This document shows positions 8,095 to 47,065 of a DNA stretch of 64,000 nucleotides, piece after piece. The stretch comes from an uncultured bacterium (GTDB taxonomy: Bacteria > Desulfobacterota > JADFVX01), in the NCBI GenBank assembly GCA_965372635.1, contig CBDVDA010000001.1, forward strand, positions 2,860-66,859, given 5' to 3'. The notes under the pieces were generated by a model. That model did not search any database and was not told the DNA's origin. It saw only the letters and a program-made list of their open reading frames with translations. A program made the position numbers and the translations under genes. Numbering within the stretch: position 1 is the first letter of the stretch; each line of letters begins with the position of its first letter.

Positions 8095-9606
8095 TTACTT
8101 GCCTGTTAACAACGACAGTGCCAGATTTCCCGCCGTGCTCGTCGTTCTATCGGGAATTTTTGCCAAGGCAGGCGTTTTCACGCCCTTATTTTTTATCCGC
8201 ACCTTGAACTCTTCCTGAGAGCAGCCGAACTCTTTCAGAAGCTGGCCGAATTCCTCCTTTGCCCGCTCCCGCGCTTCATGAAGCTTCATCTGTATGCGGC
8301 TCTTCACATTTACTTCGCCATCCCCCGATGTCTCAATGGGGATAAAAAGCCCCTCCTTATAATCGGAGAGTACCTTGACCTGCACGCCGTCACTCTGCGT
8401 GCTCGGCATGCAGCCGAAAGGTTTTACGGATATCACGAGGTGGGCCTTCTTCTTTTTTATCATGAGGAGGTTTTTGGCAATTTCAATGTGTCCCTCCCCT
8501 CCTGCTATGCGGGTATTATAATAGACGCCTCCAAGCTTCGCCAACTCAGACTGTGAGGGGAGCCGTTTCGGGACAAATCCGAGAGCGCCGCGGTAGCAAG
8601 TATGATAGAAATGAAAAATCAGGTTTACCGACCGGAGACGCAGGAAGCCGGAAAGATACCACCATCGTTTTTTTATTCCCCTGGCAGTCCCCATTCTCTC
8701 TTTAAGATATTCCTCCCACCACCAGATCGTATAGTCTATCCAGCTGCTCACCGGCGCCACCATCACCTCGCATCCCTCCTTCTCCAGCCAGGATGCAAGA
8801 TTATAATTGCCGTCCCCTTCCGTCGTCTGCGCCCAGAACTCGCCGATCATCTTCACCCTGGGCCTTACCTCTGAATAATCGACCTTCACCCGGCCCATTA
8901 TCTGCCTGGCCTGCCTTAGCGCCATGAAAATGGAGCGCCCTTCCCTAAAGGCGATATAGAGACAATCGAATGCCTCTTTCACAGCCGCTTCCGTTGCCCC
9001 TGTCTCTATCTCGTAGGGACGTATTTTATATTTTATCTCATTTATCAGGTCGGCGGCGATGATCCCTTTTCCCAAGGCAACGTAGAAGTCTTTATCCTGC
9101 TTCAACCCCGATTTTTCATCCTTATTCACGTCACCCGATTGGTTGATAATAAGGACCCGAAAACGCCCGAAGCCGGCATCTATAAGGGCTTTGCGATATT
9201 CCGCCTCATACATTCCCATACGACAAGGTCCACAGGCGCCGATGGTGAGAAAGAGATAGCGGTCTTCAATATCTTTTTCGCCGGATGCCTTCAGGCGCTG
9301 GAGATAGCGGATAAGGTTGCCCACTGTATAGTAGGTGGGGTTGCACTGCCCCCGGTTTCCGTATTCCTTTCCGATGGCGAGTGCTTCGTTATCGGGCGTA
9401 GGGAGGTAGTCCGCCTTATGTCCCAGCCCTTCGAGCACGCCTTTGAGAATGATCTCGTGGCCCGGCGTTAGGCCGCCGAAAAGGATGGTGACCTTCTCTT
9501 TTTCATGGGCAAGAAAGGGGCGTTCCTCCGCTTTCCTGTAATGGGTGATTTCGGCCCCTTTTAAGGCTTGCGAGTTCTTAATTCCTGATGGGAGTCTCTT
9601 CTCCAT
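8095..9606 (-). CDS. Acyl-CoA dehydratase-related protein (HgdB/DUF2229-like), partner of the upstream fused activase
   Basis: 503 aa with a cysteine-containing dehydratase-component-like layout. Its start codon is 1 nt from the stop of the 1110-aa activase fusion. Confidence 0.6.
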   Translation of the reverse strand: MEKRLPSGIKNSQALKGAEITHYRKAEERPFLAHEKEKVTILFGGLTPGHEIILKGVLEGLGHKADYLPTPDNEALAIGKEYGNRGQCNPTYYTVGNLIRYLQRLKASGEKDIEDRYLFLTIGACGPCRMGMYEAEYRKALIDAGFGRFRVLIINQSGDVNKDEKSGLKQDKDFYVALGKGIIAADLINEIKYKIRPYEIETGATEAAVKEAFDCLYIAFREGRSIFMALRQARQIMGRVKVDYSEVRPRVKMIGEFWAQTTEGDGNYNLASWLEKEGCEVMVAPVSSWIDYTIWWWEEYLKERMGTARGIKKRWWYLSGFLRLRSVNLIFHFYHTCYRGALGFVPKRLPSQSELAKLGGVYYNTRIAGGEGHIEIAKNLLMIKKKKAHLVISVKPFGCMPSTQSDGVQVKVLSDYKEGLFIPIETSGDGEVNVKSRIQMKLHEARERAKEEFGQLLKEFGCSQEEFKVRIKNKGVKTPALAKIPDRTTSTAGNLALSLLTGK

Positions 9607-13858: not shown

Positions 13859-14073
13859 GTCCTCCGATTCGAAGTCTTTTTTAAGCGGGCCGACACATCG
13901 GCCTGATTTTTAGATGCTCAAACGCTGCTCAAGGTGCAGTTTTTTCTTACTTTTAAAGTATAGCAGCAGATCGAAGCATTGCAAGTTTGCCGGGCCGATT
14001 TTTTAAAATGGTTTCAGAGGAAATCCTGTGCTATTATTGGCGCGCAGGAGAGGAAAAAACAGGGACGGAAGCC

Positions 14074-15789
14074 ATGAAAGAACAAGAAGAGGACAAGAGG
14101 GAAGGCAGCGAAGCTGCGCCGTCTAACTTTATCCGGCAGGTTATCGACAAAGACCTGGAAACGGGAAAGAATGATGGGCGCGTAGTCACCCGCTTCCCCC
14201 CCGAGCCGAACGGCTACCTCCACATCGGCCACGCCAAATCGATCTGCCTCAACTTCGGCCTTGCAGGCCGCTACGGCGGCGTCTGCCATCTCCGCTTTGA
14301 CGACACCAACCCGACGAAGGAAGAGGCGGAGTACGTCTACGCCATTATTGAGGATGTAAAGTGGCTCGGTTTCGACTGGGAGAATCATCTCTACTACGCC
14401 TCCGATTATTTTGAAAAGATGTACGACTTTGCCGTTACGCTTATAAAAAAGGGGAAGGCTTACGTCTGTAGCTTAAGCGCCGACGAGATGCGGGAATACC
14501 GGGGCACCCTCACCGAACCGGGACGGGAAAGCCCACACCGGAACCGGAGCGTGGAGGAAAACCTCACCCTCTTCAAGCAGATGAGGAAGGGGGAATTCCC
14601 CGACGGCTCGCATGTGCTTCGCGCGAAGATCGACATGGCGTCGCCCAACCTGAATATGCGCGACCCTGTCCTCTACCGCATCCAGAAGGCGAACCACCAC
14701 CGAACGGGCGATACGTGGTGCATCTACCCCATGTACGACTTCGCCCACTGCCTCGAAGACGCCATCGAGGGGATTACCCATTCCATCTGCACCCTCGAAT
14801 TCGAAGACCACCGCCCTCTCTACGACTGGGTACTCGACGAGGTAGGCACGAAGTGCCACCCACAACAGATCGAATTTGCACGGCTGAATTTGAGCTATAC
14901 CGTTATGAGCAAGCGGAAGCTGCTCCAGCTTGTGAATGAAGGGCATGTGAGCGGCTGGGACGACCCCCGCATGCCGACACTGGCGGGCTTAAGAAGGCGG
15001 GGTTTTCCACCCTCTGCGGTGAGGGATTTTTGCGAGCGCATCGGCGTGGCGAAGGCGAACAGCACCGTCGATATCGCTCTGCTGGAGCACTGCGTTCGTG
15101 AGGAGTTGAACGAATCGGCGCCCCGCGCCATGGGGGTTTTGAACCCGCTCAAGGTGATTATCACCAACTACCCGGAAGGAAAGATGGAGGAGATGGAGGT
15201 GCCGAACCACCCGGCCAGTCCGGAGATGGGGACGCGTAAGGTCTCTTTTTCGAAGACGATCTACATTGAGGCCGATGACTTCATGGAGGAACCGGCGAAG
15301 AAATTCTTTCGCCTCGCGCCGGGGAAAGAGGTTCGGCTTCGGTCCGCCTATTTCATCAAGTGCGAAGAGGTGGTAAAGGATGAAACAACGGGGGAGATAA
15401 AAGAGCTTTTATGCACCTACGACCCTGCGTCGCGCGGCGGCGCCTCACCCGACGGCAGGAAGGTGAAGGGGACGCTCCACTGGGTTTCGGTCGACCACTC
15501 AGTCGAGGCGACGGTACGGCTCTACGACCGGCTTTTTCTGACGGAAAATCCGGGAAGTGATAAGAAGACCGATTTCAGGGAAGAGGTCAATCCCGATGCT
15601 CTGGTAACGCTCGCGAATTGTCGCATCGAGCCGGGCCTCAAGGATGCCGCGCCCGGTTCGCGCTTCCAGTTCGAACGGCAGGGCTACTTTTCAGTCGATA
15701 GTGATTCAAAGAGTGACAAGCCGGTTTTTAACCGGATCGTGCCGCTTCGCGATACTTGGGGAAAGGTGAGCGGGGCACCTGCCAGGTAG
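14074..15789 (+). CDS. glnS: Glutaminyl-tRNA synthetase
   Basis: HIGH motif ([14 protein letters not shown]), VMSKR (KMSKS), and an N-terminus [12 protein letters not shown] matching GlnS. Start set at MKEQ (14074), which has an AGGGA RBS. Confidence 0.9.
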
Positions 15790-15804: not shown

Positions 15805-15893
15805 ATTTTTATTGTAGGGGCGGCCCTTGTGTCCGCCCTTTTTGCCAGCATTTAAAGGGCAACCACGAGGGTTTGCCCCTACGCAGACATTCC
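15805..15893. repeat. REP-like composite palindromic element, copy A. GTAGGGGC...GCCC-TTTTT terminator-like hairpin, then GGGCAAC..TTGCCC hairpin, then CTACG.
   Basis: Same family as 17069-17212 and 19147-19365. The ORF-track start at 15827 falls inside this repeat. Confidence 0.7.
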
Positions 15894-15955
15894 ATCAAAT
15901 AAGCGAGGGGGCAACCTATTTCATTCCATTACATCTTATCTCAAAAGATAAAATT

Positions 15956-17026
15956 ATGATTGATGGCAAAAACAGAGACATAAAAAGAAAGGCTTTTTTC
16001 TGCAAAAAAATATTAACCCAGGCGATGTTTGTTACTTTTATTGCCTTACTTCACCTGTCTCTGTCGCCGCTAATAGCTTTTTCATTTGAAACAAATCCTT
16101 CAAAACAAAATCAACCTCTTGAAATAAACCGGGAGGAAAAGAAACAGGGAGTCTTTAAAAGAACCTTTGGTTTGATAGAAACCTTTCAGGAAAATTTTTC
16201 GAAAGGCATAACGTCTACGGGTGATAAAATAGACACATTTTTTGGAGGTGAGAGGGTTATCCAGGAGTCAAACGGGAGTTTTGTTCGGTTGAGACTGGGC
16301 ACTGTTTACGCCAGGGGAGGAGAAGTTTTTTTTGAAAGAGACATAAAGCTGAAAATTGCAATCCCGAAGACTAAGGACAGACTTAAGCTGATGATAGGAG
16401 ATGAACCTGAAGATGAAAACAGGGAGTTTAAAAACTTATCCGACACTTTGGATTCATCTACGGTAAAGGAAGAATCTGTTGGCCTTGGGTACATTCTTAA
16501 GGCTAAAAAAGCTTTGAATATAAGCGTCAGTGCCGGGGCAAGATATCATAACGGGGTAGACTACTATTCAAAGGTGAGGAGCAGAAAATCTTTTTATCCT
16601 GGAAAGTGGGAACTCAGGATATCAGAAATACCATTTTGGACACGGTTCAGAGGATACGGGGCAACAACGGGAATCGATTTTGAGCGGAAGCTGGGTGAAA
16701 ACCTGTTTTTCAGGGCTTCCAGCAGCGCTACCTGGCATGACGATACGGAGGCCTACGAGCTTGCTCAAAACCTTACTCTGTTTCAGCAGTTAAGCAACCG
16801 GAACATGATGGCTTACAACGTCGGCGCCTTCGGGGGAAGAAGCGGCGGCGTGACTTACGTCACGGAATATGCCGCTTCGATTATTTTCAGGAGAAACATC
16901 TATAAGAACTGGCTTTTTGGGGAAATTCAGCCAAGGGCTCTGTTCCAGAAGAGTGATGGCTTTGATCTTTACCCCTCCATAACGGCAAGACTGGAAGTGG
17001 TTTTCGGAAAACCATCAGGGAAATAA
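15956..17026 (+). CDS. Hypothetical secreted beta-rich protein (possible outer-membrane beta-barrel), low GC
   Basis: Start moved downstream of the REP element to MIDGKNRD or to the signal-peptide-like MFVTFIALLHLSLSPLIAFS. Alternating hydrophobic pattern and AT-rich composition. Flanked by REP-like repeats on both sides. Confidence 0.55.
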   Translation: MIDGKNRDIKRKAFFCKKILTQAMFVTFIALLHLSLSPLIAFSFETNPSKQNQPLEINREEKKQGVFKRTFGLIETFQENFSKGITSTGDKIDTFFGGERVIQESNGSFVRLRLGTVYARGGEVFFERDIKLKIAIPKTKDRLKLMIGDEPEDENREFKNLSDTLDSSTVKEESVGLGYILKAKKALNISVSAGARYHNGVDYYSKVRSRKSFYPGKWELRISEIPFWTRFRGYGATTGIDFERKLGENLFFRASSSATWHDDTEAYELAQNLTLFQQLSNRNMMAYNVGAFGGRSGGVTYVTEYAASIIFRRNIYKNWLFGEIQPRALFQKSDGFDLYPSITARLEVVFGKPSGK

Positions 17027-17068: not shown

Positions 17069-17212
17069 ATTTATTGTAGGGGCGCACCCATGTGTGCGCC
17101 CTTTTTTGCCAGTATTTGGGCAGACACGCGGGTCTGCCCCTACGCAAGATTTTTTGTGTAGAGGCGGCCCTTTTCGATACTTAACAGGGCAACCACAAGG
17201 GATTGCCCCTAC
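17069..17212. repeat. REP-like palindromic elements, copy B (about 1.5-2 units) between convergent genes
   Basis: GTAGGGGCGCACCCATGTGTGCGCCCTTTTTTGCCAGTATTTGGGCAGACACGCGGGTCTGCCCCTACG plus a second partial unit. The first hairpin followed by T6 looks like a bidirectional terminator. Confidence 0.7.
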
Positions 17213-17228: not shown

Positions 17229-18545
17229 CTATAGAAAGAAACTGAAAAACCCCGCATAAACCAGACTCACCACAATCAGGCTGACCAGCATTGTGGGAAG
17301 CCCGATTCTAAGCCACTGCATCGGGGTAATCCGCGCATCAGGCATACCGCATTCTTCTGATTCTGTTACCGCAATAATATTGGCCGTTGCGCCGATATGG
17401 GTGCCGTTCCCACCTACACCGACGCCTATGGCAAGCGCCCACCAGAGCGGCGTTATATTTACGCCCTGGCTTTCCAGACCGACGATAATCGGTATCATGG
17501 TTACTGTGAAAGGGATGTTGTCTATGACGGCGCTAAGCAGCGCCGACGTCCAGATAATAAAAAGGGATGTGGCAAGCAGCATCCCCGGTTGTCCCGCCAT
17601 AAGGGCCACTTTTTTTCCTATCAGGTTAAGGAGTCCCGAACCTTCAACTCCGCCTACCATGACGAAGAGGCCTGCAAAGAAAAAAAGCACCGACCAGTTT
17701 ACCTCTCCAAACATACTGTCCGGTTTCGGCCTTAACAGGATCAGAGCCAGTGAAAGTCCTATAAAGGTAACAAAGGCGGGGTAGAGGTGCAGCTTATGGT
17801 GTATAAAGAAAAGAAGCACTATGAGGCCTAGAGAAAGGAGCGCCCTAAACAGGGCGGACGGGTCTTTTATGGCCTTGCTTTCATCCAGGTCTATTGACCG
17901 ATCAGTTTTTACAGCGAGTTCCTTTCGAAACATGAAAAGAATGAGGCCTATCGTCGTCAGCCAGAGGAGCAGCATAGGAGGCGCCATGTGTATCAAAAAG
18001 GGGGTAAAATCTATGCCTCCTGCGCTGCCGATCATGAGGTTTGGCGGGTCTCCAACCAGTGTGGCTGCACCGCCGATGTTGGAAAGCATCGCCTCTGCCA
18101 ACAGGTAGGGCATGGGATTAAGATTCAGGATTCGGGTTATGAGGACTGTAAGGGGAGCGAATATTATTATGGTAGTCACATTATCAATCACCATGCTTAT
18201 CAAGCTGACGGCGAGACAGAGATAAACAAGCAGTAATCTGCTGTTCCCTTTTGCCAGCCTGGCAATGCGTATGGCAGCGTATTCGAAGGCCCCCGTTGGA
18301 CGCAACATGGATACAACCATCATCATCCCCGTCAGGAGCAGCAGCGTATTGGCGTCTATCGCCCTGATAGCCGCCTCCTGGGAGTAAAAACCGGCTTTCA
18401 TTCCAACAATAATCATGACTACAGAACCTATAATGGCAGCGCTTGTCCGGTGGATGATTTCGCTGAAGATCACAATATAGGAGACAAGAAGTATGGCTAC
18501 GGCCAGGAGCATGTTGCTTGTGAGGGCAGGCTGGAGGGTTTCCAT
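17229..18545 (-). CDS. ArsB/NhaD-superfamily ion transporter (SLC13/citrate-transporter-like permease)
   Basis: About 12 TM helices and an IDNVTTIIIFAP-type motif. 438 aa. Confidence 0.75.
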   Translation of the reverse strand: METLQPALTSNMLLAVAILLVSYIVIFSEIIHRTSAAIIGSVVMIIVGMKAGFYSQEAAIRAIDANTLLLLTGMMMVVSMLRPTGAFEYAAIRIARLAKGNSRLLLVYLCLAVSLISMVIDNVTTIIIFAPLTVLITRILNLNPMPYLLAEAMLSNIGGAATLVGDPPNLMIGSAGGIDFTPFLIHMAPPMLLLWLTTIGLILFMFRKELAVKTDRSIDLDESKAIKDPSALFRALLSLGLIVLLFFIHHKLHLYPAFVTFIGLSLALILLRPKPDSMFGEVNWSVLFFFAGLFVMVGGVEGSGLLNLIGKKVALMAGQPGMLLATSLFIIWTSALLSAVIDNIPFTVTMIPIIVGLESQGVNITPLWWALAIGVGVGGNGTHIGATANIIAVTESEECGMPDARITPMQWLRIGLPTMLVSLIVVSLVYAGFFSFFL

Positions 18546-18548
18546 TGG

Positions 18549-19001
18549 TCAGAGTTCCCTGTTTTTAAGCATAAGACTGGCGATGCCCATGCGGGTGACT
18601 ATCCCTTCATAAACGCCTTCGTCTATAAGAAAGACATAGCCGGAATTATACTTTTCCATGATAGAGAGTGCCTTGACTAGGGGAGATGAGGCGCTTACGG
18701 TGGCGATGTTTTCGAGTACGAAGGATTCGACAGGCATATCGAGTAATTTTTTAACCTCAATTTTCGAGGTGGAAAGATGCCAGATATCATCGCCGAGAAG
18801 ATGGGCGGCCTTGACCATATAGCCGGGCGTAGCTGAAACCTTGAATGCATGGCGCATGGAGACCCGCCCTACAACCTTGTTGTTTTCATCGCAAAAGGGT
18901 ATGCCGGGTACGTTCTGTTTTACGCACTCTTCAAAGACCTCACCTATGGTCATGCCGGTCTTTGCCACAGCTGTTGGGATGACAATATCGAGCAGTTCCA
19001 T
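18549..19001 (-). CDS. CBS-domain pair protein
   Basis: 150 aa with two CBS-like modules. Its stop abuts the transporter start, so it is likely an operon regulatory subunit. Confidence 0.7.
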   Translation of the reverse strand: MELLDIVIPTAVAKTGMTIGEVFEECVKQNVPGIPFCDENNKVVGRVSMRHAFKVSATPGYMVKAAHLLGDDIWHLSTSKIEVKKLLDMPVESFVLENIATVSASSPLVKALSIMEKYNSGYVFLIDEGVYEGIVTRMGIASLMLKNREL

Positions 19002-19146
19002 TCCTTCTCCTTTCTCATTAAACGATATAGATTAATTCTACTAGAGAATGTGCAGATAAGCAAAAAAGGAGAAGAGAGGGGATGGAGGAGGATATGTAGA
19101 GGCTTGGCCTGCCAAGCCCTCAACGTAGATGCCATCAGACAATCAT

Positions 19147-19365
19147 GGGCAAGGCAGGCCATTGCCCCTACGAGTTTATCCGGTTAATATCTCGTTTGTT
19201 TTGTAGGGGCGTCACCCATGTGTGCGCCCATCTTTGCAATATTTCAAGGGCAGATACACGGGTCTGCCCCTACGAGTTCATCCGGTTAACAATACGTTTA
19301 TTTTATTGTAGGGGCGGCCCTTGTGGCCGCCTTTTTCGGTACCTGTCAGGGCAACCACTGTAGCA
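19147..19365. repeat. Tandem REP-like palindromic elements, copy C (about 2.5 units, period about 105 nt)
   Basis: Repeated ...CCCCTACGAGTT(T/C)ATCCGGTTAA...TTGTAGGGGCG..CCC...GGGCA....TGCCCCTAC. The ORF-track peptides in this region are translations of the repeat. Confidence 0.7.
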
Positions 19366-19373
19366 AAAAATGT

Positions 19374-19402
19374 TTGCAAAGGATGATTTCGGGGTATAGA
19401 AT
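19374..19402 (+). promoter_or_regulatory. Strong sigma70-like promoter (TTGCAA-N17-TAGAAT)
   Basis: -35 TTGCAA at 19374-19379, 17-nt spacer, -10 TAGAAT at 19397-19402. About 50 nt upstream of a strong terminator. Confidence 0.5.
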
Positions 19403-19455
19403 GAAGGCCGAATGTCGGGGTGGACCTGCTTTACATCAATGCGTGAATCCTCAAA

Positions 19456-19492
19456 GCCCGCACCGGCAAAACGGTGGCGGGCTTTTTTGTTT
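19456..19492 (+). terminator. Rho-independent terminator (GCCCGCACCG-GCAAAA-CGGTGGCGGGC then TTTTTTGTTTTT)
   Basis: Perfect GC-rich stem of 10-11 bp followed by a T-run. No annotated CDS lies upstream on this strand. Confidence 0.65.
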
Positions 19493-19549
19493 TTATGTTG
19501 ATTCAGATTTGTAATCTGAATCAGAAAGTTTCAGGTTCAAGTTGTAAAC

Positions 19550-20392
19550 TTGAACCAACGAAGAGAGCAGGTCAAATTGGATAACAAGATTCCAGTCAAT
19601 TCACTCGACTACAGCAGCATTCATGCTTGGGGGGAGTTCAAAAGATATTTAGTGACAGAAAACAGGTTTGTCCTTAACAAACAACAGCAGCTATTTGTCA
19701 GTAATGTAATAAAGGCAGTTCAGAATCGAACCACTTGTTTGAAACAGGGCGAAATATGGTATAGGGCAAGACGTTGTTTTGAAGATTATTCCGGCAGCCA
19801 CCCCAAAGTTGAGGGGAATAAAAAAATATATGGGAGATTCCCTGCAAAGAAAGAAGAGATGGACGCTCCTCCTATAAATTCTGCGACCGATGGACGAGCA
19901 AACCCCAGGCAGTTTCCAATGCTATACCTAGCTAAAAAAGAAGAAACTGCAATGACTGAAACTCGTCCTTTCCTGGGTGAGCTAATTACCTTGGCACCAT
20001 TCAAATTAGATTGTGATCTTAAGGTTGTTGATCTAGTATCTACTCAGTTCAATGGGAAAAATGATGATATTTGTCAAATGGAACAAAGAGGCGAAATTAC
20101 AAGTGTAGAAGTAGAAAATTACATATGGGAAATGATAGGGCATGATTTTTCCATACCTACCGATCCAAGTGACTCGGATGGCAAGTATGTACCCACCCAA
20201 TATTTAGCAGGGGTATTTAAAAACGCTGGTTTTGACGGTATTATGTACTCAAGTGCGTTAAAAAAGGGTGGTATCAATTTAGTTCTTTTCGATCCTTGCG
20301 CTGCAAACTCTCAAGTTGGGAAAATATTCTGTACGAGTGCTATTGAATACAATTTTGTTGGATCTGGGCCACAAAAAGAATATCGAAGTTAA
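19550..20392 (+). CDS. RES-domain protein (toxin-like, putative NAD+-targeting RES fold) with N-terminal extension, in a low-GC segment
   Basis: WYRARR (Arg), GRANPRQFPMLYLAKKEETAMTE (Glu region) and GIMYSSALKKGGINLVLF (Ser region) fit the R-E-S motif order. About 40% GC against about 58% in the flanks. No Xre-type partner is evident. Confidence 0.65.
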   Translation: MNQRREQVKLDNKIPVNSLDYSSIHAWGEFKRYLVTENRFVLNKQQQLFVSNVIKAVQNRTTCLKQGEIWYRARRCFEDYSGSHPKVEGNKKIYGRFPAKKEEMDAPPINSATDGRANPRQFPMLYLAKKEETAMTETRPFLGELITLAPFKLDCDLKVVDLVSTQFNGKNDDICQMEQRGEITSVEVENYIWEMIGHDFSIPTDPSDSDGKYVPTQYLAGVFKNAGFDGIMYSSALKKGGINLVLFDPCAANSQVGKIFCTSAIEYNFVGSGPQKEYRS

Positions 20393-20411
20393 CCAAGAAT
20401 AAGTTTGGATT

Positions 20412-20437
20412 GTCGGGTTACGCTTCGCTAACCCGAC
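20412..20437. terminator. Perfect 9-bp inverted repeat hairpin between convergent genes (GTCGGGTTA-cgcttcgc-TAACCCGAC)
   Basis: Seen directly in the sequence. No T-run follows, so it may act as an RNA stability or termination element. Confidence 0.4.
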
Positions 20438-20821
20438 CTACGCTAGGAACTTATTAACGCCTTCCACCAACTCCTTGTGGTTGAGCGGTTTTACGAGATA
20501 ATCGTCGGCCCCCGCCGCCTTTGCCAGTTCGATAAGCTTTTTATCCCCCATGGCGGAAAGCATAACGATGGGTATGTCCTTCAGCTTTTCAATCTCCCTG
20601 ATCCGCTTGCAGACCTCAATGCCGTCCACGTCCGGCATGGCGAGGTCGAGGAGAATGAGGTTCGGCACCTCTTTCTTGGCGAGGTAGACCCCCTCCGTAC
20701 CGTCTTCCGCTTCTATCGTTTCGAAATCCTCCGTTTTCAGGATTTCGGAGGCGAACTTCCGGTTCATCTCGTTATCATCGATAATCAGTATCTTCTTCAA
20801 CTTTAATCCTCTTTCGTCCAC
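20438..20821 (-). CDS. Stand-alone CheY-like response regulator receiver protein
   Basis: ILIIDD...LLDLAMPDVDG...MLSA...K motifs of a REC domain. 127 aa with no output domain. Confidence 0.85.
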   Translation of the reverse strand: MDERGLKLKKILIIDDNEMNRKFASEILKTEDFETIEAEDGTEGVYLAKKEVPNLILLDLAMPDVDGIEVCKRIREIEKLKDIPIVMLSAMGDKKLIELAKAAGADDYLVKPLNHKELVEGVNKFLA

Positions 20822-20902: not shown

Positions 20903-21805
20903 CTAGCGGGTGCCGCTCCACTGGAGCTTGGTTCTCAAAACCTCGTAATAATTTCGGTTGGGCGACTTGACGAGGCGGGTCACGTTTTTTGCCCGTTCAA
21001 TCCTCACCGTGTCGCCCGCCCGGAGCGCGAAGGCGACCTGCCCGTCCAGGGTGAGGAGGTGGTCCACGTTTTCCGTCTTCAGGGTGACCCGGATGATCGA
21101 ATCGTCGGGGATGATGATGGGACGGTTATTCAGGGTGAAGGGGCAGATGGGGGTGATGACAATGGCGTTCAGCGAGGGGTGAACGATCGGTCCCGCTGCA
21201 GCTAAAGAATAACCCGTCGATCCGGTGGGGGTGGAAAAGATAAGCCCGTCCACGCGGTAGAGCGTGAGGTACTCATCGTTAATAGTGGTCTCAAGGTCGA
21301 TAATCCGGGCGATGGAGCCTTTGTTGAGCACCACATCGTTCAGGGCGGAATATTCGGTGATCTTTTCACCCTGCCGGTAGATGGTGCCGACGAGCATCAT
21401 CCTCTCTTCCAGTTCGAAATCCCCCCCTAATATTTTTTCCAGCACCGGGAAGAGCTCGTCTACGGTGATTTCCGTAAGGAAGCCGAGACTGCCGAGGTTG
21501 ACGCCGAGGATGGGGAGCCCTTTGGTGCCGACGAGGCGGGCTACGCTAAGAAGAGTTCCATCGCCGCCGAGGACGATGAACAAATCCACGAGATCGGGCA
21601 TGTCCGACTTCTGGTGCCCCTTCTCAACTCCGAGTTCAGCCACGTTTTCTTTCTCGAAAAAGGGCTCGATATTCCGCTCCTCCAGCCAGGGGAGGAGCTT
21701 CTTTGCCAACTCCAGACCTTCGGGCTTGTTCTGCTTTATGATGATGCCGATTTTATTTATTGGATTTTTCATTGGCGCACTCTTTATTGAAGGGAAAATT
21801 ATCAT
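20903..21805 (-). CDS. nadK: NAD+ kinase
   Basis: GGDGTLL motif, NDE..Y..DGLIFSTPTGSTGYSLAAGGP motif. GGAAGG RBS before the ATG at 21805. Confidence 0.85.
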   Translation of the reverse strand: MIIFPSIKSAPMKNPINKIGIIIKQNKPEGLELAKKLLPWLEERNIEPFFEKENVAELGVEKGHQKSDMPDLVDLFIVLGGDGTLLSVARLVGTKGLPILGVNLGSLGFLTEITVDELFPVLEKILGGDFELEERMMLVGTIYRQGEKITEYSALNDVVLNKGSIARIIDLETTINDEYLTLYRVDGLIFSTPTGSTGYSLAAAGPIVHPSLNAIVITPICPFTLNNRPIIIPDDSIIRVTLKTENVDHLLTLDGQVAFALRAGDTVRIERAKNVTRLVKSPNRNYYEVLRTKLQWSGTR

Positions 21806-21896
21806 AAATGTACCTTCCTGTCCATAAGTAATTTAGAAATTCTTTTGCCCTCGAAAGGGGGTAGGATGAACGGCCCTTTTGTGCTATATTTCTCCC

Positions 21897-23204
21897 ATGT
21901 TCGCAGACGCCGAAAAAAGAGAATCTATCCCGCTCGCCGAAAGGATGCGGCCAGCGGGTTTCGATGAGTTTATCGGGCAGGATGATATCCTCGGCGAGGG
22001 GAAGGCGCTTCGCCTCGCCGTAGCAAAGGGCCACATCCCGTCACTCATCCTCTGGGGGCCTCCGGGATCGGGAAAGACGACGCTCGCCCACCTTATAGCC
22101 GCCCGGATTGAAGCCGAATTCGAATCCGTCTCCGCCGTCCTTTCGGGGGTGAAGGAGGTGCGGGAGATCATGGCAAAGGCGAAAGTGTCGAAGGCAGAGG
22201 GGCGCGAAACGATCCTCTTCGTCGATGAGGTGCACCGCTTCAACAAGGCGCAGCAGGATGCCTTTTTGCACCACGTGGAGGACGGCACCATCACCTTCAT
22301 CGGCGCGACGACGGAAAACCCCTCCTTCGAGGTGGTCTCACCGCTCCTTTCGCGCTGCAAGGTAGTGGTGCTCAAATCACTTGACCAGGAGGCGCTCACC
22401 GCCATCCTTGAGCGCGCCCTCTCCGATAAAGAAAGAGGGCTCGGAGAAATGAAGCTGGAGGCGACGGACGAGGCGCTCGCCTTTGTGGCCGATACGTCCC
22501 ACGGCGATGCGCGGGTGGCGCTCGGCACGCTGGAAGAGTTGGCCCGCTTCAAAGGGGAGGGGGAAAAGGGAAAGATAAAGCTGGAGCTGAAAGATGCCGA
22601 AGAGGTGCTCAGCCGAAAGGCTCTCCTCTATGACAAGGGAGGAGAAGAGCATTACAATGTCATCTCCGCCTTCATCAAAAGCATGAGAGGGAGCGATGCC
22701 GATGGGGCGCTCTACTGGCTGGCACGAATGCTGGAAGCGGGGGAAGACCCCCTCTTTATAGCACGGCGGATGGTGATCTTCGCCTCCGAGGATGTGGGCA
22801 ACGCCGACCCGCGCGCCATCAGCGTGGCGATGGCGGCGAAGGATGCCTTCCATTTCGTCGGCCTGCCCGAAGGGTGGATACCGCTCGCCCAGGCGGCCAC
22901 CTACCTCGCCACGGCGCCGAAGAGCAACGCCTCCTACATGGGGTACAAAAAGGCGCGGCAAGACGTGGCCGAAAAAGGCGTGCTCCCTGTACCGCTCTCT
23001 ATCCGGAATGCCCCGACGAAGCTGATGAAAGGGCTCGGTTACGGTAAGGGGTACCGCTATCCTCACGACTATGAAGAGGGGTATGCGCCGGGTGAATATC
23101 TCCCGGAAAAGCTTAAAGGAACGGTCTACTACAACCCCACCGACAGGGGGTATGAGCAGCGGATACGGGAGCGGATGGAATTTATAAGAAAGAAAAAAGA
23201 ATAA
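21897..23204 (+). CDS. rarA: Replication-associated recombination protein A (AAA+ ATPase RarA/MgsA)
   Basis: PLAERMRP...LILWGPPGSGKTTLA Walker A, VDEVHRFNKAQQDA. Start at MFADAEKRE by analogy to E. coli RarA; the ORF track extends to a TTG at 21879. Confidence 0.85.
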   Translation: MFADAEKRESIPLAERMRPAGFDEFIGQDDILGEGKALRLAVAKGHIPSLILWGPPGSGKTTLAHLIAARIEAEFESVSAVLSGVKEVREIMAKAKVSKAEGRETILFVDEVHRFNKAQQDAFLHHVEDGTITFIGATTENPSFEVVSPLLSRCKVVVLKSLDQEALTAILERALSDKERGLGEMKLEATDEALAFVADTSHGDARVALGTLEELARFKGEGEKGKIKLELKDAEEVLSRKALLYDKGGEEHYNVISAFIKSMRGSDADGALYWLARMLEAGEDPLFIARRMVIFASEDVGNADPRAISVAMAAKDAFHFVGLPEGWIPLAQAATYLATAPKSNASYMGYKKARQDVAEKGVLPVPLSIRNAPTKLMKGLGYGKGYRYPHDYEEGYAPGEYLPEKLKGTVYYNPTDRGYEQRIRERMEFIRKKKE

Positions 23205-35769: not shown

Positions 35770-36891
35770 ATGATGAAACTTTTGATTTCGAAAGCGCAAA
35801 TATTGCTTCTTGTTTTGGTGTGCTTTGCTTGCAACGCCGAGGCCGCACCCAAAGAAAAGCTTCGTTTTCCCGACCTTCACCGGGCATCGAATATGGTTAC
35901 GGGCGGGTGCGAATCATGCCACGCGGGGAGCAAGATGAACCGTGCCGTTAAGGAGACCTGCCTCCAGTGTCACGGGTCCATCGGCGACCTTAAGGGCGCC
36001 GAAAAGAAAAAACTGCTCAACCCTTTCTACCGGGGAGGACGGCAAATCAGGAAGATTGACATGAGAAGCCTGCTTGAAAAAGAATACAGGCATCCTCTCG
36101 GCGAGGAAGGAAACTGGCACAGTGCTCACGAGGAACTTCCGGAACGTGTGATGGATGCGCCCCGGCATGTGGAGTGCGTCGATTGTCACAATGCGCATTA
36201 TCTGAAAACTGCCAACAAACTGGCCGGTTTAAGAGGCGTCAGCAAGACGGGCATCTATGGCGTTCGGGCACGTTATGAGTATGAAATCTGTTTCAATTGT
36301 CATTCCGACAGCTTTAATCTTCCCGTCTGGCAAACAAACAAAAGATTGGAATTCGATGAAAACAACCCTTCCTACCATCCTGTCGTAGCGGAAGGGCAAA
36401 GCGGGATTGTTCCAAGCCTGAAAACCCCCTATAAGGAGACCTACGAGGAACCGGGCGATATTTCAATAATCAAATGCACCGATTGTCACGGAAACGATGA
36501 TGACCGGGGACCACAGGGGCCCCATGCTTCGATTTATCCTTTTATTTTGAAAAAGAAATATTCCATGCAGGATGGCCTCGATGAACGACCGAAAGAGTAC
36601 GATCTTTGCTATAGCTGCCACAAGAGAAGCAGTATCCTCGGCAACATTTCTTTTCGTTGGCATTCTTTACATATTCAGGGTGATATTATCAAGGGGGTAA
36701 AGGGAACGAGCTGCTTTACCTGCCATGACGCACATGGCAGCAGGGAGTATACCCACCTCATAAAATTTAATGAAGAAGTTGTGTTTATAAATACTTCTTC
36801 ATTGGAACTGAAATTTGTGGATAAAGGAGAATTTACCGGAGAATGTTATTTGAATTGCCATGGCGTTAACCATAGTCCGAAGGGTTACTAA
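35770..36891 (+). CDS. Multiheme c-type cytochrome (7 canonical CXXCH plus one CX3CH)
   Basis: Signal peptide. CESCH, CLQCH, CVDCH, CFNCH, CTDCH, CYSCH, CFTCH, CYLNCH. Confidence 0.8.
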   Translation: MMKLLISKAQILLLVLVCFACNAEAAPKEKLRFPDLHRASNMVTGGCESCHAGSKMNRAVKETCLQCHGSIGDLKGAEKKKLLNPFYRGGRQIRKIDMRSLLEKEYRHPLGEEGNWHSAHEELPERVMDAPRHVECVDCHNAHYLKTANKLAGLRGVSKTGIYGVRARYEYEICFNCHSDSFNLPVWQTNKRLEFDENNPSYHPVVAEGQSGIVPSLKTPYKETYEEPGDISIIKCTDCHGNDDDRGPQGPHASIYPFILKKKYSMQDGLDERPKEYDLCYSCHKRSSILGNISFRWHSLHIQGDIIKGVKGTSCFTCHDAHGSREYTHLIKFNEEVVFINTSSLELKFVDKGEFTGECYLNCHGVNHSPKGY

Positions 36892-37388
36892 TGCAGCCTA
36901 TAACAAGGCAGGGTATTTTGACTTTGATGGTATGTTCAGTTATTTTTTTTGGTTGCTCCGGAGGAGACCATAAATTCGGAAATGTTCATCGAGAGAGCAG
37001 TCTCTCTCCCGGAACGGATGGACTAAGAGAAAAGATAAATCCGCATCGTGGAAAACATTGCCTGAAATGTCATGTCACAGATGGAAATGAATTGTTTGAC
37101 CTGAGAAAAAAGAAAGGGCGTCAGGATTTTTCACCAGAAACTAACTTTCTCAAGGCAAACTTAAATAAATTATGCGCTTCCTGTCATGATAAGAAAAAAG
37201 GCGACCACCCGGTGGGTGCCGCTCCGGGAATAAACAGGCTCGATCTTCCACTGGATGAAAAAGGTAAAATAAACTGCGCTGCAACCTGTCACGATGTACA
37301 TATAAGCAATGAAAATATTTCAGGGGTAAAGAAAGGCTTGCTCCGGGCGCCCGCAGAAAAGTTATGTTTATCATGTCATGATGTTTGA
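36891..37388 (+). CDS. Small multiheme c-type cytochrome (3 CXXCH plus one CX3CH)
   Basis: CLKCH, CASCH, CAATCH, CLSCH. Signal peptide with a possible lipobox (FFGCS). Confidence 0.75.
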   Translation: MQPITRQGILTLMVCSVIFFGCSGGDHKFGNVHRESSLSPGTDGLREKINPHRGKHCLKCHVTDGNELFDLRKKKGRQDFSPETNFLKANLNKLCASCHDKKKGDHPVGAAPGINRLDLPLDEKGKINCAATCHDVHISNENISGVKKGLLRAPAEKLCLSCHDV

Positions 37389-37430
37389 TGTTTTATATTT
37401 ATTATGTTGGAACTATAAGGATGGTGTTTT

Positions 37431-38642
37431 ATGCCGGTGTTCAGATGTAAGGTGGGAGATGAAAGCGGAAAACTCGATGAGAAGGAAATAGAGGCAAGCG
37501 ATAGCAAACAGTTGCGGGAAAGGCTTGAGCAGGAAGGGTTATATGTTTATGAAATAAAGCAAAAGGGCACTTTTCAATTCGCCGTACCGAGTTTTTCGGG
37601 GCTCAAAAAAATCAGTACCGACGAATTTCTTGTCTTCAACCAGCAATTAATGGCTTTGCTTAAAGCCGGTCTGCCCCTGCTTTCATCCCTCGAAACGCTA
37701 GCCAGCCAGGAAGAAACCCCCCACTTTCAAAAAATACTAACTTCCGTTGCTAAAGAGGTTAAAGAAGGGGCTCCTTTTTCAAGTGCCGTTGAAGACTATC
37801 CCAGGGTTTTTTCAAAACTTTATGTTTCTTCACTCCGTGCGGGGGAAAAAAGCGGAGATCTCGTTTTAAATATCTCGAGATACATCGCTTACACAAAAAG
37901 GGTGGAAGAGCTAAAAAAAAAGGTCATTACAGCATCCGTCTATCCATTAATTCTTCTTACCGTTGCAACCTTTGTCATCCTTTTTCTTCTCCTCTATGTG
38001 GTGCCGTCATTCAGCCAGGTTTTTCTTGATGCAGGTACCTCTCTTCCTACGCCGACCCGTATTCTTATTGCCTTTACGGGGTTGGTAAAAAACAATGTAA
38101 TCTTTCTCTCAATACTGTTTATGGCGCTTTATCCTGTGTTTATGTTTGCCAGAAAAAATCAAAACCTTCGCCGGAAGATGGACAAGTTGAAATTGAATAT
38201 TCCCTGGGTCGGGAAAATCATTCATCGTTATGCGGTAGCGAAATTTTGCAGGACCCTTTCAACGATTCTTAAAAGTGGAGATCCCCTTGTTTCCGCTATT
38301 CCCCTGGCAGCAGGCACCCTGGAAAACAGTTATATGGAGGAGAGTGTTGTGGACGCCTCTAAGCGTGTTCGGGAGGGGGTCGGCCTGTCTCAGGCAATGG
38401 CAGACGCGAAATTGATGCCGGCCATGGCGCTGAAGATGATCAACGTCGGTGAATCGAGCGGCTCACTGGAAGAGATGTTTGACAACGTTGCCGATCTTTT
38501 TGAAGAGGAGGTGGATCGGAAATTAAATATTCTCACGTCAACCATCGAGCCCCTGCTTATGCTCAGCATGGGATTGATAGTTGCATTTATTGTTGTAGCC
38601 ATGTATCTTCCTATATTCAAACTTGCCGAGACGGTTAGATAG
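37431..38642 (+). CDS. gspF: Type II secretion / type IV pilus platform protein (GspF/PilC family)
   Basis: 403 aa, with the duplicated GspF cytoplasmic domain and 3 TM layout. Confidence 0.8.
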   Translation: MPVFRCKVGDESGKLDEKEIEASDSKQLRERLEQEGLYVYEIKQKGTFQFAVPSFSGLKKISTDEFLVFNQQLMALLKAGLPLLSSLETLASQEETPHFQKILTSVAKEVKEGAPFSSAVEDYPRVFSKLYVSSLRAGEKSGDLVLNISRYIAYTKRVEELKKKVITASVYPLILLTVATFVILFLLLYVVPSFSQVFLDAGTSLPTPTRILIAFTGLVKNNVIFLSILFMALYPVFMFARKNQNLRRKMDKLKLNIPWVGKIIHRYAVAKFCRTLSTILKSGDPLVSAIPLAAGTLENSYMEESVVDASKRVREGVGLSQAMADAKLMPAMALKMINVGESSGSLEEMFDNVADLFEEEVDRKLNILTSTIEPLLMLSMGLIVAFIVVAMYLPIFKLAETVR

Positions 38643-38653
38643 CAGAGTAGATA

Positions 38654-40366
38654 ATGGCAGAGAGAAAAAAAATAGGTGAAATTCTGGTTGAAATGGGATT
38701 TCTGTCGGATGAGCAACGCCGGGAAGTCCTTTCTCAGGAAATTACGGATGGGAAAAGATTCGGAGAGAGATGTATCGAAGGAGAGCTTCTTGATGATGAA
38801 CAACTCGCCAGAGCTCTCGCAAGGCAAAGTGGGAACGAATTTATCGACTTGTCTGACTTTGAACCTTCTGAAGAGCTTGTAGACGCAGTTCCTCTCGAAC
38901 TTATTCATCGCTATCTTTTCGTTCCTTACCAAAAGGAGGGAAAGAGGCTAACCATTGCCGTTTCCGACCCTACTGACGTTTTGTTAATTGATGAGTTGGA
39001 ACTTCTCCTCGATTTGACCATTGTTGCCGGGGTTTCACCGTCCCAGGCGATTGCGAAAGCGATTAAGGTCTTTGAACGTTCGGGAAGGCTTGTCAAGGAT
39101 GTATCCGCCGGGATGGAGTTGCAGTTGGTTAAAGAGACTGACGACGGCGATGAAGTCCTCTCCATGGAGAAAATATCGGAGGAGATGAGCCCTGTTGTCA
39201 AGCTCGTCGATTCGACAATTCTCGATGCATTAAGCAAGCGAGCTAGTGACATTCATATTGAGAGCACTCGCAAAGGGCTGGAAATCAAATACCGGATAGA
39301 TGGCGTTCTTTACAGCGCTGCCGTCCCTCTCGATACCCAGTTTCAATCTCCCATCATTTCGAGGATTAAGGTAATGTCCGAACTGGACATCTCGGAAAAA
39401 CGGATTCCTCAGGATGGCCGTTTCAAGCTGAGAATCGGAGGGAAGGCGATTGATTTCAGGGTCTCCATCATGCCGAGTATTCACGGTGAAGATGCCGTTA
39501 TCAGGATTCTGGACAAAGAGTCGATCGGTGCTGAAATTCAAAAGCTGAGCCTCGAATCTGTCGGATTTCACGAGGATGAAATTGTTCGATTCCGTAAAAT
39601 GATTCGGGAACCCTACGGTATGGTGCTTGTGACGGGGCCGACGGGAAGCGGAAAAACGACGACTCTTTATGCGGCCCTGACGGAGATCAACAGCGTTGAG
39701 GAAAAAATCATTACCATTGAAGACCCTGTCGAATATAATCTTGACGGCATCGTACAGATACCGGTTAATGAAAAAAAAGGCCTTACCTTTGCAAAGGGCC
39801 TCCGGTCGATTTTACGTCATGACCCGGATAAGATTATGGTAGGAGAGATAAGGGATGTGGAAACTGCGCAAATAGCGATCCAGTCCGCCCTGACGGGCCA
39901 TCTGGTCTTTACTACTGTTCATGCCAACAACGCCTTTGACGTTATCGGACGCTTCCTGCATATGAACATGGAGCCCTATAATTTCGTATCGTCCCTGAAT
40001 TGTATCCTGGCTCAAAGACTGGTTAGAAAGCTCTGCGAAAAGTGCAAGCAGGAAGTCAAACTATCACGGGAAGAGATGGAAGAATCCCACTTCGACTACG
40101 AAAAATATAAAGATCATACCTTTTTTGATGCAAAAGGGTGCGGTGACTGTAATTATACAGGCTACAGGGGGAGGTCGGCAATCGTTGAACTGCTCGACCT
40201 TACGGAGGAAATTCGGGAACTGATTCTGGAAAAAGCCTCAACGGCAAAATTGAAAGCGGCGGCTGCCAAGTCAGGCACCACTTTTTTAAGGGGCGCCGCC
40301 GTCAGAAAAGTGTTGAGTGGCGAGACGACTCTGAAAGAAATAAATCGCGTCACCTTTGTTGACTGA
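38654..40366 (+). CDS. gspE: Type II secretion / type IV pilus assembly ATPase (GspE/PilB family) with an MshEN-like N-terminal domain
   Basis: Walker A GPTGSGKTTTLYAAL and tetracysteine CEKCKQ...CGDCNYTGYRGR. The N-terminus has two RxGE(I/L)LV..G.(L/I)...QL..AL..Q-type motifs (KIGEILVEMGFLSDEQRREVLSQ, RFGERCIEGELLDDEQLARALARQ), as in c-di-GMP-binding MshEN domains. Confidence 0.85.
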   Translation: MAERKKIGEILVEMGFLSDEQRREVLSQEITDGKRFGERCIEGELLDDEQLARALARQSGNEFIDLSDFEPSEELVDAVPLELIHRYLFVPYQKEGKRLTIAVSDPTDVLLIDELELLLDLTIVAGVSPSQAIAKAIKVFERSGRLVKDVSAGMELQLVKETDDGDEVLSMEKISEEMSPVVKLVDSTILDALSKRASDIHIESTRKGLEIKYRIDGVLYSAAVPLDTQFQSPIISRIKVMSELDISEKRIPQDGRFKLRIGGKAIDFRVSIMPSIHGEDAVIRILDKESIGAEIQKLSLESVGFHEDEIVRFRKMIREPYGMVLVTGPTGSGKTTTLYAALTEINSVEEKIITIEDPVEYNLDGIVQIPVNEKKGLTFAKGLRSILRHDPDKIMVGEIRDVETAQIAIQSALTGHLVFTTVHANNAFDVIGRFLHMNMEPYNFVSSLNCILAQRLVRKLCEKCKQEVKLSREEMEESHFDYEKYKDHTFFDAKGCGDCNYTGYRGRSAIVELLDLTEEIRELILEKASTAKLKAAAAKSGTTFLRGAAVRKVLSGETTLKEINRVTFVD

Positions 40367-40377
40367 AGATAATATCC

Positions 40378-41268
40378 ATGTTCTTTAACCGTACTCACAA
40401 AACTATCGACATCACATCCGATTCTGTACGTTTCGTGGAAATTGAAGGTTCCGGATCCATGCCGCGACTCATTCATGCCGCTACAGATGACCTTCCCGAC
40501 GGACTTGTTGTCCCCTCCTTTGCCAAATCAAATATTAGCGACCGGGAATTGCTGAAGGAAAAAATCTCCGCGCTTATTCCGGATAAAAAAAGAGGTGGAG
40601 ACATTGCGCTTTGCCTCCCTGACTCTCTCGTGAAAATCACGTCTCTCAGCTTTGAGGATTTGCCGGCCAAAAAAGACGAAGCGACAAAATTGATTCTCTG
40701 GCGCTTAAAAAAAACAGTGCCTCTCCCAACGGAACTCATAAAAATCGATTATGCAATCCTTTCGCAGGAAGAGGCCGGGGTACAAGTACTGACGGCTGCC
40801 GCCTCCAAAACAGTAATCAGGGAGTATGAAGATGTTTTGCGGGAGCTCGGTTTTCGACCCCGTCTGGTGGATATAGCCACCCTGAGCGCCCTTTTTCTTT
40901 ACAAAAAAACGATTGATGATAATTCACTCTTTATCAACTTTAAAGATAACATCATGAGCTTTGCCTTTCTGGTCGAAGGCAAAGTAGAATTTTTCCGGAG
41001 TAAAGAAATGGACTCTACGCCTGCTACTGTTGAGAAGGAATTTGCGTCTACTTATCGGTACTATCAAGCAAATTTTCGGGAACAGGGCGTCGATAATATT
41101 TGTGTCCATTTGGCCGGTGAAAATTCAGATGAGATTCTGAGCGCTTTAAAGAACAGTTTTGAAGGGGAAATTGCAGTTCTCCGGTTATTGGATTTTGCAT
41201 CCTGCCCTGCATCTTTAACAACCGATGAAAACTACTCGTCGGCAATCGGCCTTGCTCTCACGCTTTAA
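40378..41268 (+). CDS. PilM-like actin-fold assembly protein (GspL cytoplasmic-domain analogue)
   Basis: 296 aa. Sits in the pilM position ahead of single-TM PilN/PilO-like genes. Confidence 0.6.
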   Translation: MFFNRTHKTIDITSDSVRFVEIEGSGSMPRLIHAATDDLPDGLVVPSFAKSNISDRELLKEKISALIPDKKRGGDIALCLPDSLVKITSLSFEDLPAKKDEATKLILWRLKKTVPLPTELIKIDYAILSQEEAGVQVLTAAASKTVIREYEDVLRELGFRPRLVDIATLSALFLYKKTIDDNSLFINFKDNIMSFAFLVEGKVEFFRSKEMDSTPATVEKEFASTYRYYQANFREQGVDNICVHLAGENSDEILSALKNSFEGEIAVLRLLDFASCPASLTTDENYSSAIGLALTL

Positions 41269-41302
41269 TGTTCTACTTGAATTTTTAACATAAATATTTG
41301 GA

Positions 41303-41869
41303 ATGATTTCTTTTAACCTGGCCACATACGAATATACAGACAAGAGGGTAGCCCTCCTGATAGCGGTTTTTATTTCTTGCACCTTGGTTTTATTTGCCGG
41401 CTACAATTACATAGTTTACGAAAAATCAAAGGTGCAATCTGATCGTGCCCTGAAAGAGGTAAAAAAAATACAAAAAGATATCTCTCTTATTAAAAAACAA
41501 ATCGAGGAAAGCAAAAAAGGGAAAGACAGCGCCATCGGAGGACGTTATGAAGAGAAGCTTTCGGATAAGATACTCTGGCTAAATGAAATTATAGGAAGAA
41601 AAGCATTTTCCTGGAGTCAATTGTTGTATTCTCTGGAGAAGGCGTCCCCTCCTCGTATCGCAATTAAAACAATAAGACCAAATTTTTCCGGAAAAAAGAT
41701 TAGAATCATCGGCCAAGCGAAAGATGTGGCTGCTATTACAACCTTTGTAGATAGTCTTCAGGGGACTAAATATATTACGAAAAGTTTTCTCTTGAAAGAG
41801 AATATTGTCATTGTAGAAAAAAAATATGAAGCCGTTGATTTTGAAATTGAATGTGAAGGAAATTTTTGA
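41303..41869 (+). CDS. PilN-like bitopic inner-membrane protein
   Basis: N-terminal TM (LLIAVFISCTLVLFAGYNYIVY) followed by a coiled-coil. 188 aa. Confidence 0.55.
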   Translation: MISFNLATYEYTDKRVALLIAVFISCTLVLFAGYNYIVYEKSKVQSDRALKEVKKIQKDISLIKKQIEESKKGKDSAIGGRYEEKLSDKILWLNEIIGRKAFSWSQLLYSLEKASPPRIAIKTIRPNFSGKKIRIIGQAKDVAAITTFVDSLQGTKYITKSFLLKENIVIVEKKYEAVDFEIECEGNF

Positions 41870-43214: not shown

Positions 43215-43230
43215 GAAGGAGATATTTCAG

Positions 43231-45573: not shown

Positions 45574-45587
45574 AGATAGGGCCAAAA

Positions 45588-46067: not shown

Positions 46068-46070
46068 CCG

Positions 46071-46466: not shown

Positions 46467-46537
46467 AAAATCCCCGGCAGGCATTTTGTGTCGTGAAAAT
46501 AGAATAACTTTCCCTAATATTTTTAGTTGTTCAAGCA

Positions 46538-47026: not shown

Positions 47027-47065
47027 TATTTAGCCCTTCCAATTCCTTGAAAGCAACCATCCTTA

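Follow-up and report, generated by a model that had tools for sequence, protein, structure and literature searches.

A stand-alone RES-domain gene of foreign composition in an uncultured Desulfobacterota bacterium, probably a short-form relative of the antiphage aRES proteins

The DNA considered here, referred to as the window, is a stretch of 64,000 nucleotides of contig CBDVDA010000001.1 (GenBank assembly GCA_965372635.1) from an uncultured bacterium of the Desulfobacterota lineage JADFVX01, and the element in question is a gene on its forward strand, at 19577..20392, that encodes a RES-domain protein and has no antitoxin gene beside it. We consider it fairly probable that the product is a stand-alone RES-fold enzyme acting on nicotinamide adenine dinucleotide (NAD+), and that it belongs, as a short form, to the family in which the antiphage aRES proteins are found. 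The gene is preceded by 575 nt of non-coding DNA and followed by a convergent gene, and the genes flanking it on both sides (those for a CBS-domain protein and a response regulator) lie on the opposite strand. The genes of the locus are the following:

13987..15789, + strand, class I Glu/Gln tRNA synthetase
17229..18545, - strand, CitMHS-type transporter
18549..19001, - strand, CBS-domain protein
19563..19571, + strand, weak putative Shine-Dalgarno-like stretch GAGAGCAGG (AGG-containing), read from the sequence, 5-6 nt before TTG 19577
19577..20392, + strand, RES-domain gene (mechanical open reading frame from TTG 19550), delimited by the open reading frame call, Pfam, the N-termini of homologues and the structural model
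20438..20821, - strand, single-domain response regulator, convergent with the RES gene
20903..21805, - strand, NAD kinase
21879..23204, + strand, MgsA/RarA

The uninterrupted open reading frame (ORF) runs from 19550 to 20392 and would encode 280 amino acids (aa) counted from its first TTG, whereas in the public databases the protein (P0001, 100% identity) is annotated with the following TTG, at 19577, as its start, which gives 271 aa. Exact look-ups of the two versions retrieved no contig. Since the N-termini of the homologues fit the latter start and a Shine-Dalgarno-like stretch precedes it, TTG 19577 appears the likelier start codon, as far as the sequence can tell. The residue numbers R72 to S235 used below follow the 280-aa numbering, and those given for P0001 the 271-aa numbering.

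The initial annotation had recognised a RES-domain protein in this gene and had proposed a Pfam search as a check, which bears it out: the Pfam RES profile PF08808 matches residues 111-256 with 62.6 bits (cut-off 23.2; E 5.7e-17). An AlphaFold2 model built on 60 relatives, with a mean predicted local distance difference test (pLDDT) of 90.3 and a predicted template-modelling score of 0.87, has the fold of the RES toxins, its best Foldseek matches in the PDB being MbcT (6fkg), NatT (8qnl), the Pseudomonas putida Res protein (6gw6 and 9r35) and ParT (6d0i), with probabilities of 0.97-1.00 and target-normalised template-modelling scores of 0.44-0.56 for the top ones. The sequence similarity of the family profile to these solved toxins is marginal (E 1e-4 to 0.3). 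The following residues are the conserved active-site candidates, as judged from alignment and conservation:

R72/R74, R116, Y126, E137 and S235 of the window protein

In a profile alignment, R116, Y126 and E137 fall on R47, Y58 and E69 of MbcT, while S235 falls on the RES serine motif of NatT and is the counterpart of S126 of MbcT. R72/R74, in the motif YRARR, probably correspond to R27 of MbcT, as judged only by where they lie in the first strand. The Arg, Tyr, Glu and Ser positions of the active site are invariant or nearly so across 60 diverse relatives. In MbcT, R27, R47 and Y58 are essential for toxicity, the E69A variant keeps limited activity, and S126 is dispensable (PMC6436930).

The shape of the N-terminus differs from what had been described at first. 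Instead of an extension of about 100 aa, the model has a RES core at about 66-265 preceded by two helices at about 26-57 (pLDDT 92-98), so that the true extension consists of these two helices and measures about 55 aa. The YRARR motif already belongs to the RES domain, where it sits in the first strand, and the Pfam RES profile begins at the equivalent place in the protein P0007. Further departures from the toxins of known structure are an insertion of about 17 aa after the first strand (pLDDT 64-74), which is specific to the window protein and its 60%-identical relative, and another, helical one that precedes the Ser motif.

The origin of the N-terminal helices becomes evident from the family to which the protein belongs. 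A family profile, whose matches span nearly the full length of the proteins, N-terminal helices included, retrieves 8,271 representative clusters (50% identity) at E<=1e-3 and 1,776 at E<=1e-30. The relatives fall into two length classes, one of about 225-290 aa and another of about 340-430 aa, and the long class carries the PF18870 (HEPN/RES-NTD1) domain together with RES, in some cases with a Zn ribbon. The association of PF18870 with RES was first noted by Anantharaman et al. in 2013 (PMC3710099), and it is the architecture of the aRES proteins, the stand-alone RES proteins found in defence islands that were described by Osterman et al. in January 2026 (bioRxiv 10.64898/2026.01.28.702374). 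According to that study, three enterobacterial aRES proteins protect E. coli from phages without the need of an antitoxin; upon infection they convert NAD+ to nicotinamide and ADP-ribose (ADPR)-1''-phosphate, and their active-site mutants lose defence.

In profile searches, two-domain members match with E 1e-44 to 1e-50. Residues 14-257 of P0001 align with residues 115-334 of a 341-aa two-domain protein of Salmonella and E. coli (28% identity, E 7e-30). In the Salmonella protein, PF18870 spans residues 28-137; the window protein keeps only the last 23 residues or so of this domain (about 14-36 of P0001), which form a helix with a W..F...L....NRF motif. The N-terminal extension is thus the C-terminal remnant of a HEPN/RES-NTD1 domain plus one more helix.

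Short and long forms do not separate in the family. Among 199 relatives retrieved with a short-form profile (153 short, 46 long), the two interleave on a rough neighbour-joining tree without support values, with at least nine switches, which points clearly to repeated loss or gain of the NTD1 domain, as far as such a tree can indicate. A split NTD1 ORF was found once among 1,659 neighbour ORFs (locus L104, 3315-3647; NTD1 profile E 5e-4), directly upstream of a partial RES match, and probably represents a split or frameshifted long-form gene.

Regarding their genomic settings, the gene for the 341-aa Salmonella protein is 98% identical to genes present in 18 of 5,426 complete E. coli genomes, where it lies in a defence island. 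Relatives, short forms included, are encoded on 59 plasmids (for example, a 284-aa protein of Agrobacterium). Phage records are nearly free of them, since a tblastn search gave two matches among the 50,697 records of a phage collection, one of which is really a Salmonella chromosome contig, and the viral contigs searched held neither a relative nor a copy of the palindrome found upstream of the window gene. As a separate observation, in E. coli MS 115-1 (L114, 4158-7026) and Salmonella houtenae (L113, 1816-4684), a PF18870+RES gene starts 1-2 nt after a sce7725-family gene, which is in turn preceded by a sce7726-family gene, with a KwaB-like gene and a type I restriction-modification remnant close by. 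This arrangement looks like a three-gene operon, whereas aRES was described as stand-alone.

The lack of an Xre-type partner, pointed out in the initial annotation, holds as far as it was searched. A Pfam scan of all six frames of 18990-19600 (E<=10) gave no Xre, helix-turn-helix (HTH) or DUF2384 (PF09722) remnant, nor any other match, and one DUF2384 antitoxin, compared by phmmer with all six-frame ORFs of the window, found no match either, which as a single query is a weak test of low sensitivity. The gene might then be regarded as the orphan toxin of a classical type II RES-Xre module (MbcTA- or ParST-like), with the antitoxin lost or encoded elsewhere in the genome, given that the fold and the active-site residues are common to MbcT, NatT and ParT and that the antitoxin search spans only 64 kb of the genome. 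However, the protein reaches 12.1 bits with the NCBIfam model NF049844 (Res_ParT_toxin), against a cut-off of 110, and its 271 aa with family-specific N-terminal helices compare with 145-190 aa in Res, ParT and MbcT. Together with the clean upstream region and with the surroundings of the relatives, described next, this makes an orphan toxin highly improbable, and the window gene is not a canonical RES-Xre toxin deprived of its partner.

The surroundings of the relatives were compared in nine looked-up loci and 80 metagenome loci, dereplicated into 65 groups. When the ORFs within 2.5 kb were clustered, the most recurrent family, present in 6 of the 65 groups, was an integrase of the phage type; generic HTH_3 regulators came next, in four groups, with no fixed distance or orientation. 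Pfam families among the 107 nearest-neighbour ORFs occurred three times at most, and PF09722 was not among the recurrent ones (top 25 of 77 families, which leaves room for single occurrences). What these neighbours do have is a flavour of defence and mobile elements, as they include SIR2_2, AbiH, type ISP restriction-modification, ResIII, DNA methylase and OLD-type ATPase genes, along with AAA_15/AAA_21, DUF2971, DUF5677 and integrases. The same-strand adjacent ORFs gave a noisy picture, with sizes from 50 to 1,294 aa and no consistent partner. Many relatives begin a few nt downstream of genes of various kinds (methyltransferases, a serine protease, sce7725/7726), and relatives stand alone in isolates too. 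The absence of an antitoxin is therefore the rule for this subfamily and not an anomaly of the window locus, and since the stand-alone state is normal for the aRES-type family, a "missing antitoxin" needs no special explanation.

Several small ORFs next to RES genes (72 aa in L002, 69 aa in L009, 88 aa in L008 and 63 aa in L011) were considered as a hidden antitoxin family and discarded, as they are mutually unrelated. Bradyrhizobium sp. LMG 9283 (L008) has, at 8298-8780, a gene with an Xre-like HTH and an Xre_MbcA_ParS_C (DUF2384) domain that has no adjacent RES toxin; it lies 2.4 kb from a short-form RES gene and adjoins BilD_N/ThiF and JAB genes. NAD-related genes are found near some RES genes, namely the NAD kinase of the window (20903-21805), NadA in an Omnitrophota locus (L002, 13281-14318) and a NUDIX gene (L013, 5266-5580), cases too few to be called more than coincidence.

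The composition of the gene supports its horizontal acquisition. In agreement with the insert of about 40% GC described earlier, the gene has a GC content of 0.395 within a low-GC segment that extends from about 19493 to 20410, and its GC content at third codon positions (GC3), 0.335, is the lowest of the 38 ORFs of the window, the other 37 having a mean of 0.626 (standard deviation 0.093; minimum 0.422). It is compositionally foreign to its host. The closest relative, 60% identical, is encoded on an unrelated contig of a metagenome, where its neighbours are a DUF2971 protein and one of 253 aa that has no annotation, and the next one, 38% identical, in an Omnitrophota metagenome-assembled genome. 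An empty site was sought through relatives of the flanking genes; the NAD kinase relatives at 76%, 74% and 56% identity (L017, L018 and L019) differ in the gene order downstream of the NAD kinase, and no metagenome relative of the CBS protein was found. As no empty site was recoverable, the boundaries of the insert are those of the composition. Neither direct nor terminal inverted repeats flank the low-GC segment, and the window holds no tRNA gene.

The flanking repeats, which had been taken together with the low GC as signs of acquisition, belong to the host. Tandem repeats resembling repetitive extragenic palindromic (REP) elements are indeed present upstream, arranged like bacterial interspersed mosaic elements (BIME), as follows:

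19147..19332, strand not given, two tandem BIME-like units (102-105 nt) of GTAG-headed REP hairpins
15814-15882, 17076-17212 and 19163-19316, GTAG-headed REP/BIME-like hairpin clusters

Their signature GTAGGGGCR occurs nine times in the window against 0.68 expected, always in three intergenic regions at 15.8-19.3 kb and nowhere else in the 64 kb. These units are host intergenic repeats, located outside the low-GC insert. In the same region, a 399-aa ORF at 15827-17026 (+ strand; GC 0.43, GC3 0.445) has no Pfam match and REP clusters on both sides, and may be another foreign or fast-evolving gene. Farther downstream, about 12 kb of the window (around 36000-48000) have a lower GC content (0.42-0.47), with six ORFs at 35.8-45.6 kb whose GC3 is 0.42-0.52.

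A foreign gene might also be a silent or decaying one, without a current function in this host. The very atypical GC3 suggests a recent arrival, the gene is isolated among housekeeping genes, and it has a TTG start, a weak ribosome-binding site and a promoter that does not exceed chance. On the other hand, its ORF is intact over the full length, with no frameshift or truncation relative to the 60%-identical homologue, all the invariant residues of the family are kept, and the model is confident throughout, all of which renders decay quite unlikely.

The non-coding DNA between the repeats and the RES gene holds the following elements:

19373..19402, + strand, promoter-like hexamers TTGCAA-17-TAGAAT
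19453..19495, + strand, strong intrinsic terminator, a hairpin at 19453-19485 with a 13-bp G+C-rich stem and one bulge, then the T-run TTTTTTGTTTTT
19499..19523, perfect palindrome TGATTCAGATT-TGT-AATCTGAATCA with 11-nt arms and a 3-nt spacer, centre TGTAAT (-10-like)
19534..19556, second perfect palindrome GGTTCAAGTT-GTA-AACTTGAACC with 10-nt arms and a 3-nt spacer, centre TGTAAA (-10-like)

The two palindromes are AT-rich, have the half-site GRTTCARRTT in common, and lie between the terminator and the start of the RES gene with their centres 34 nt apart. Their pattern has two matches in the window against 0.02 expected, and no other copy there. They could constitute an operator placed over the promoter or, alternatively, form hairpins of the 5' untranslated region. 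No + strand gene lies upstream of the terminator, which would either shield the RES gene from + strand transcription arriving from upstream or mark the end of a small transcript. The initial annotation had proposed the latter, a mini-transcript running from a promoter to this terminator. Whereas the terminator is strong, the promoter-like match is at chance level (four found against 3.0 +/- 1.9 expected); both elements together could define a small RNA of about 85 nt (19403-19495). Downstream of the gene, there is a different GTAG-headed REP-like hairpin, located in the gap between the RES gene and the convergent response-regulator gene, whose stop codon it overlaps:

20412..20441, - strand, REP-like hairpin GTAGGTCGGGTTAGCGAAGCGTAACCCGAC, single copy in the window

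These elements lead to another explanation, in which the protein would be an effector relying on a non-adjacent partner, be it a regulator binding the palindromes, an RNA antitoxin in the form of the small transcript, or a sensor protein whose gene lies elsewhere. The pair of related palindromes before the start codon, the orphan terminator just upstream, the short form without the NTD1 domain of aRES, and the relatives placed a few nt downstream of varied genes would all fit it. Against it, the palindromes are not enriched across the RES family, no neighbour family is conserved, and the candidate small RNA has no counterpart in Rfam, is not repeated in the window or in the relatives' loci examined, and has no complementarity to the 5' region of the RES gene beyond that of shuffles (z +1.2). 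With the promoter at chance level in addition, the mini-transcript is not regarded as a supported RNA partner, in spite of its earlier suggestion as a non-protein one, and dependence on a partner of any of these kinds seems unlikely.

The reading that we favour remains that of a stand-alone RES enzyme related to aRES. Judging from its homologues aRES and MbcT, the protein would be inactive or scarce in healthy cells, and the TTG start, the weak ribosome-binding site, the upstream terminator and the two palindromes over the likely promoter are consistent with a low, controlled expression. Upon phage infection, it would phosphorolyse NAD+ to nicotinamide and ADP-ribose-1''-phosphate, most likely in the way of MbcT and aRES, and the depletion of NAD+ would stop growth and thereby abort phage replication. 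The contribution that PF18870 makes in aRES may be dispensable in the short form, supplied otherwise, or absent. In all, this horizontally acquired gene makes a plausible and fairly ordinary defence gene. Every test that was run agreed with the overall reading of the initial annotation, that of a solitary, acquired RES effector possibly involved in defence, and nothing that it had named as contrary to that reading was found.

Several points weigh against this interpretation. The window protein has no match to PF18870 (hmmscan, E<=1), nor does a hidden Markov model of the missing part find a separate NTD1-like gene in the whole window; should sensing or autoinhibition depend on PF18870, the short form might not behave as aRES does. 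The published aRES study covered only two-domain proteins of 300-600 aa, and the function of the short forms is proposed here by homology. The locus has housekeeping neighbours (the CitMHS transporter, CBS protein, response regulator, NAD kinase and MgsA) and not those of a defence island, and with a TTG start and no promoter above chance, the expression of the gene is only predicted. Finally, because ParT, which is also a RES protein, ADP-ribosylates a protein rather than phosphorolysing NAD+ (title of PDB entry 6d0i), the phosphorolysis chemistry counts as inferred.

This last point brings in a ParT-like ADP-ribosyltransferase acting on a protein or nucleic-acid target, or else the toxin domain of a secreted polymorphic toxin. 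ParT is among the structural matches of the model, and RES domains do occur in polymorphic toxins too (PMC3710099). Nonetheless, MbcT and NatT, which rank first among those matches, consume NAD+; ADPR-1''-phosphate is the product of the long-form aRES proteins that were tested, whose two-domain architecture is also that of the long relatives; and the window protein has neither an N-terminal trafficking or secretion domain nor an adjacent immunity gene. We thus hold both variants to be very unlikely.

A broader proposal concerns the short forms as a whole, which, with about 230-290 aa comprising a RES core and two helices and no NTD1, might be widespread, functional, minimal antiphage NAD+ phosphorylases. 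We put this forward tentatively, as more doubtful than probable. If true, infection sensing and autoinhibition in the aRES family would reside in the RES module itself or in the control of expression, here through the terminator and the paired palindromes, and not in NTD1.

NAD+ depletion is a major theme of bacterial immunity, and aRES represents its newest route, with a product, ADPR-1''-phosphate, that escapes repair by the NARP1 pathway of phages. Numerous aRES relatives are far shorter proteins, with nearly the whole N-terminal domain gone, and are skipped by the published detection criteria. Were these short forms active in defence, the prevalence of RES-based NAD+ depletion would be underestimated and the N-terminal domain could not be a universal sensor; were they inactive, they would mark a repeated loss of the domain, in view of the switches on the rough tree. 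For the window itself, the practical yield is modest: the gene had been recognised correctly as a solitary RES gene acquired horizontally. A RES gene without an antitoxin is already the normal state of the described family, and the remaining novelty is the short form, outside the published aRES definition.

Among the known systems, the RES-Xre toxins (MbcT, encoded by Rv1989c, P. putida Res, NatT and ParT) share with the window protein the RES/ADP-ribosyltransferase-like fold, the counterparts of R47, Y58, E69 and S126 of MbcT and NAD+ as the expected substrate. Contrary to them, the window gene has no Xre/DUF2384 partner and stays far below the Res_ParT_toxin cut-off, and its product has two extra N-terminal helices as well as the two insertions described above. 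The SIR2 proteins DSR1 and DSR2 and the TIR and SEFIR effectors resemble what is proposed for the window protein in that one gene brings about NAD+ depletion upon infection and growth arrest. Yet they have an unrelated catalytic fold, release ADPR instead of the ADPR-1''-phosphate of aRES, and carry large sensor domains, of which the window protein has essentially none. PADLOC-DB v2 (2023) gives no match for the window protein, but the release predates the description of aRES, so that this says nothing either way.

The closest system is aRES itself, for which the published search demanded a length of 300-600 aa and both the RES and the PF18870 domains (bioRxiv 10.64898/2026.01.28.702374). With its 271 aa (280 from the upstream TTG), only about 23 PF18870 residues and housekeeping surroundings in place of a defence island, the window protein differs from aRES in three respects, and it falls outside the published definition because of the first two. 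What it has in common with aRES is the family, the RES domain with its active-site residues kept, the stand-alone gene without an operonic antitoxin, and relatives that are often found among defence and mobile genes.

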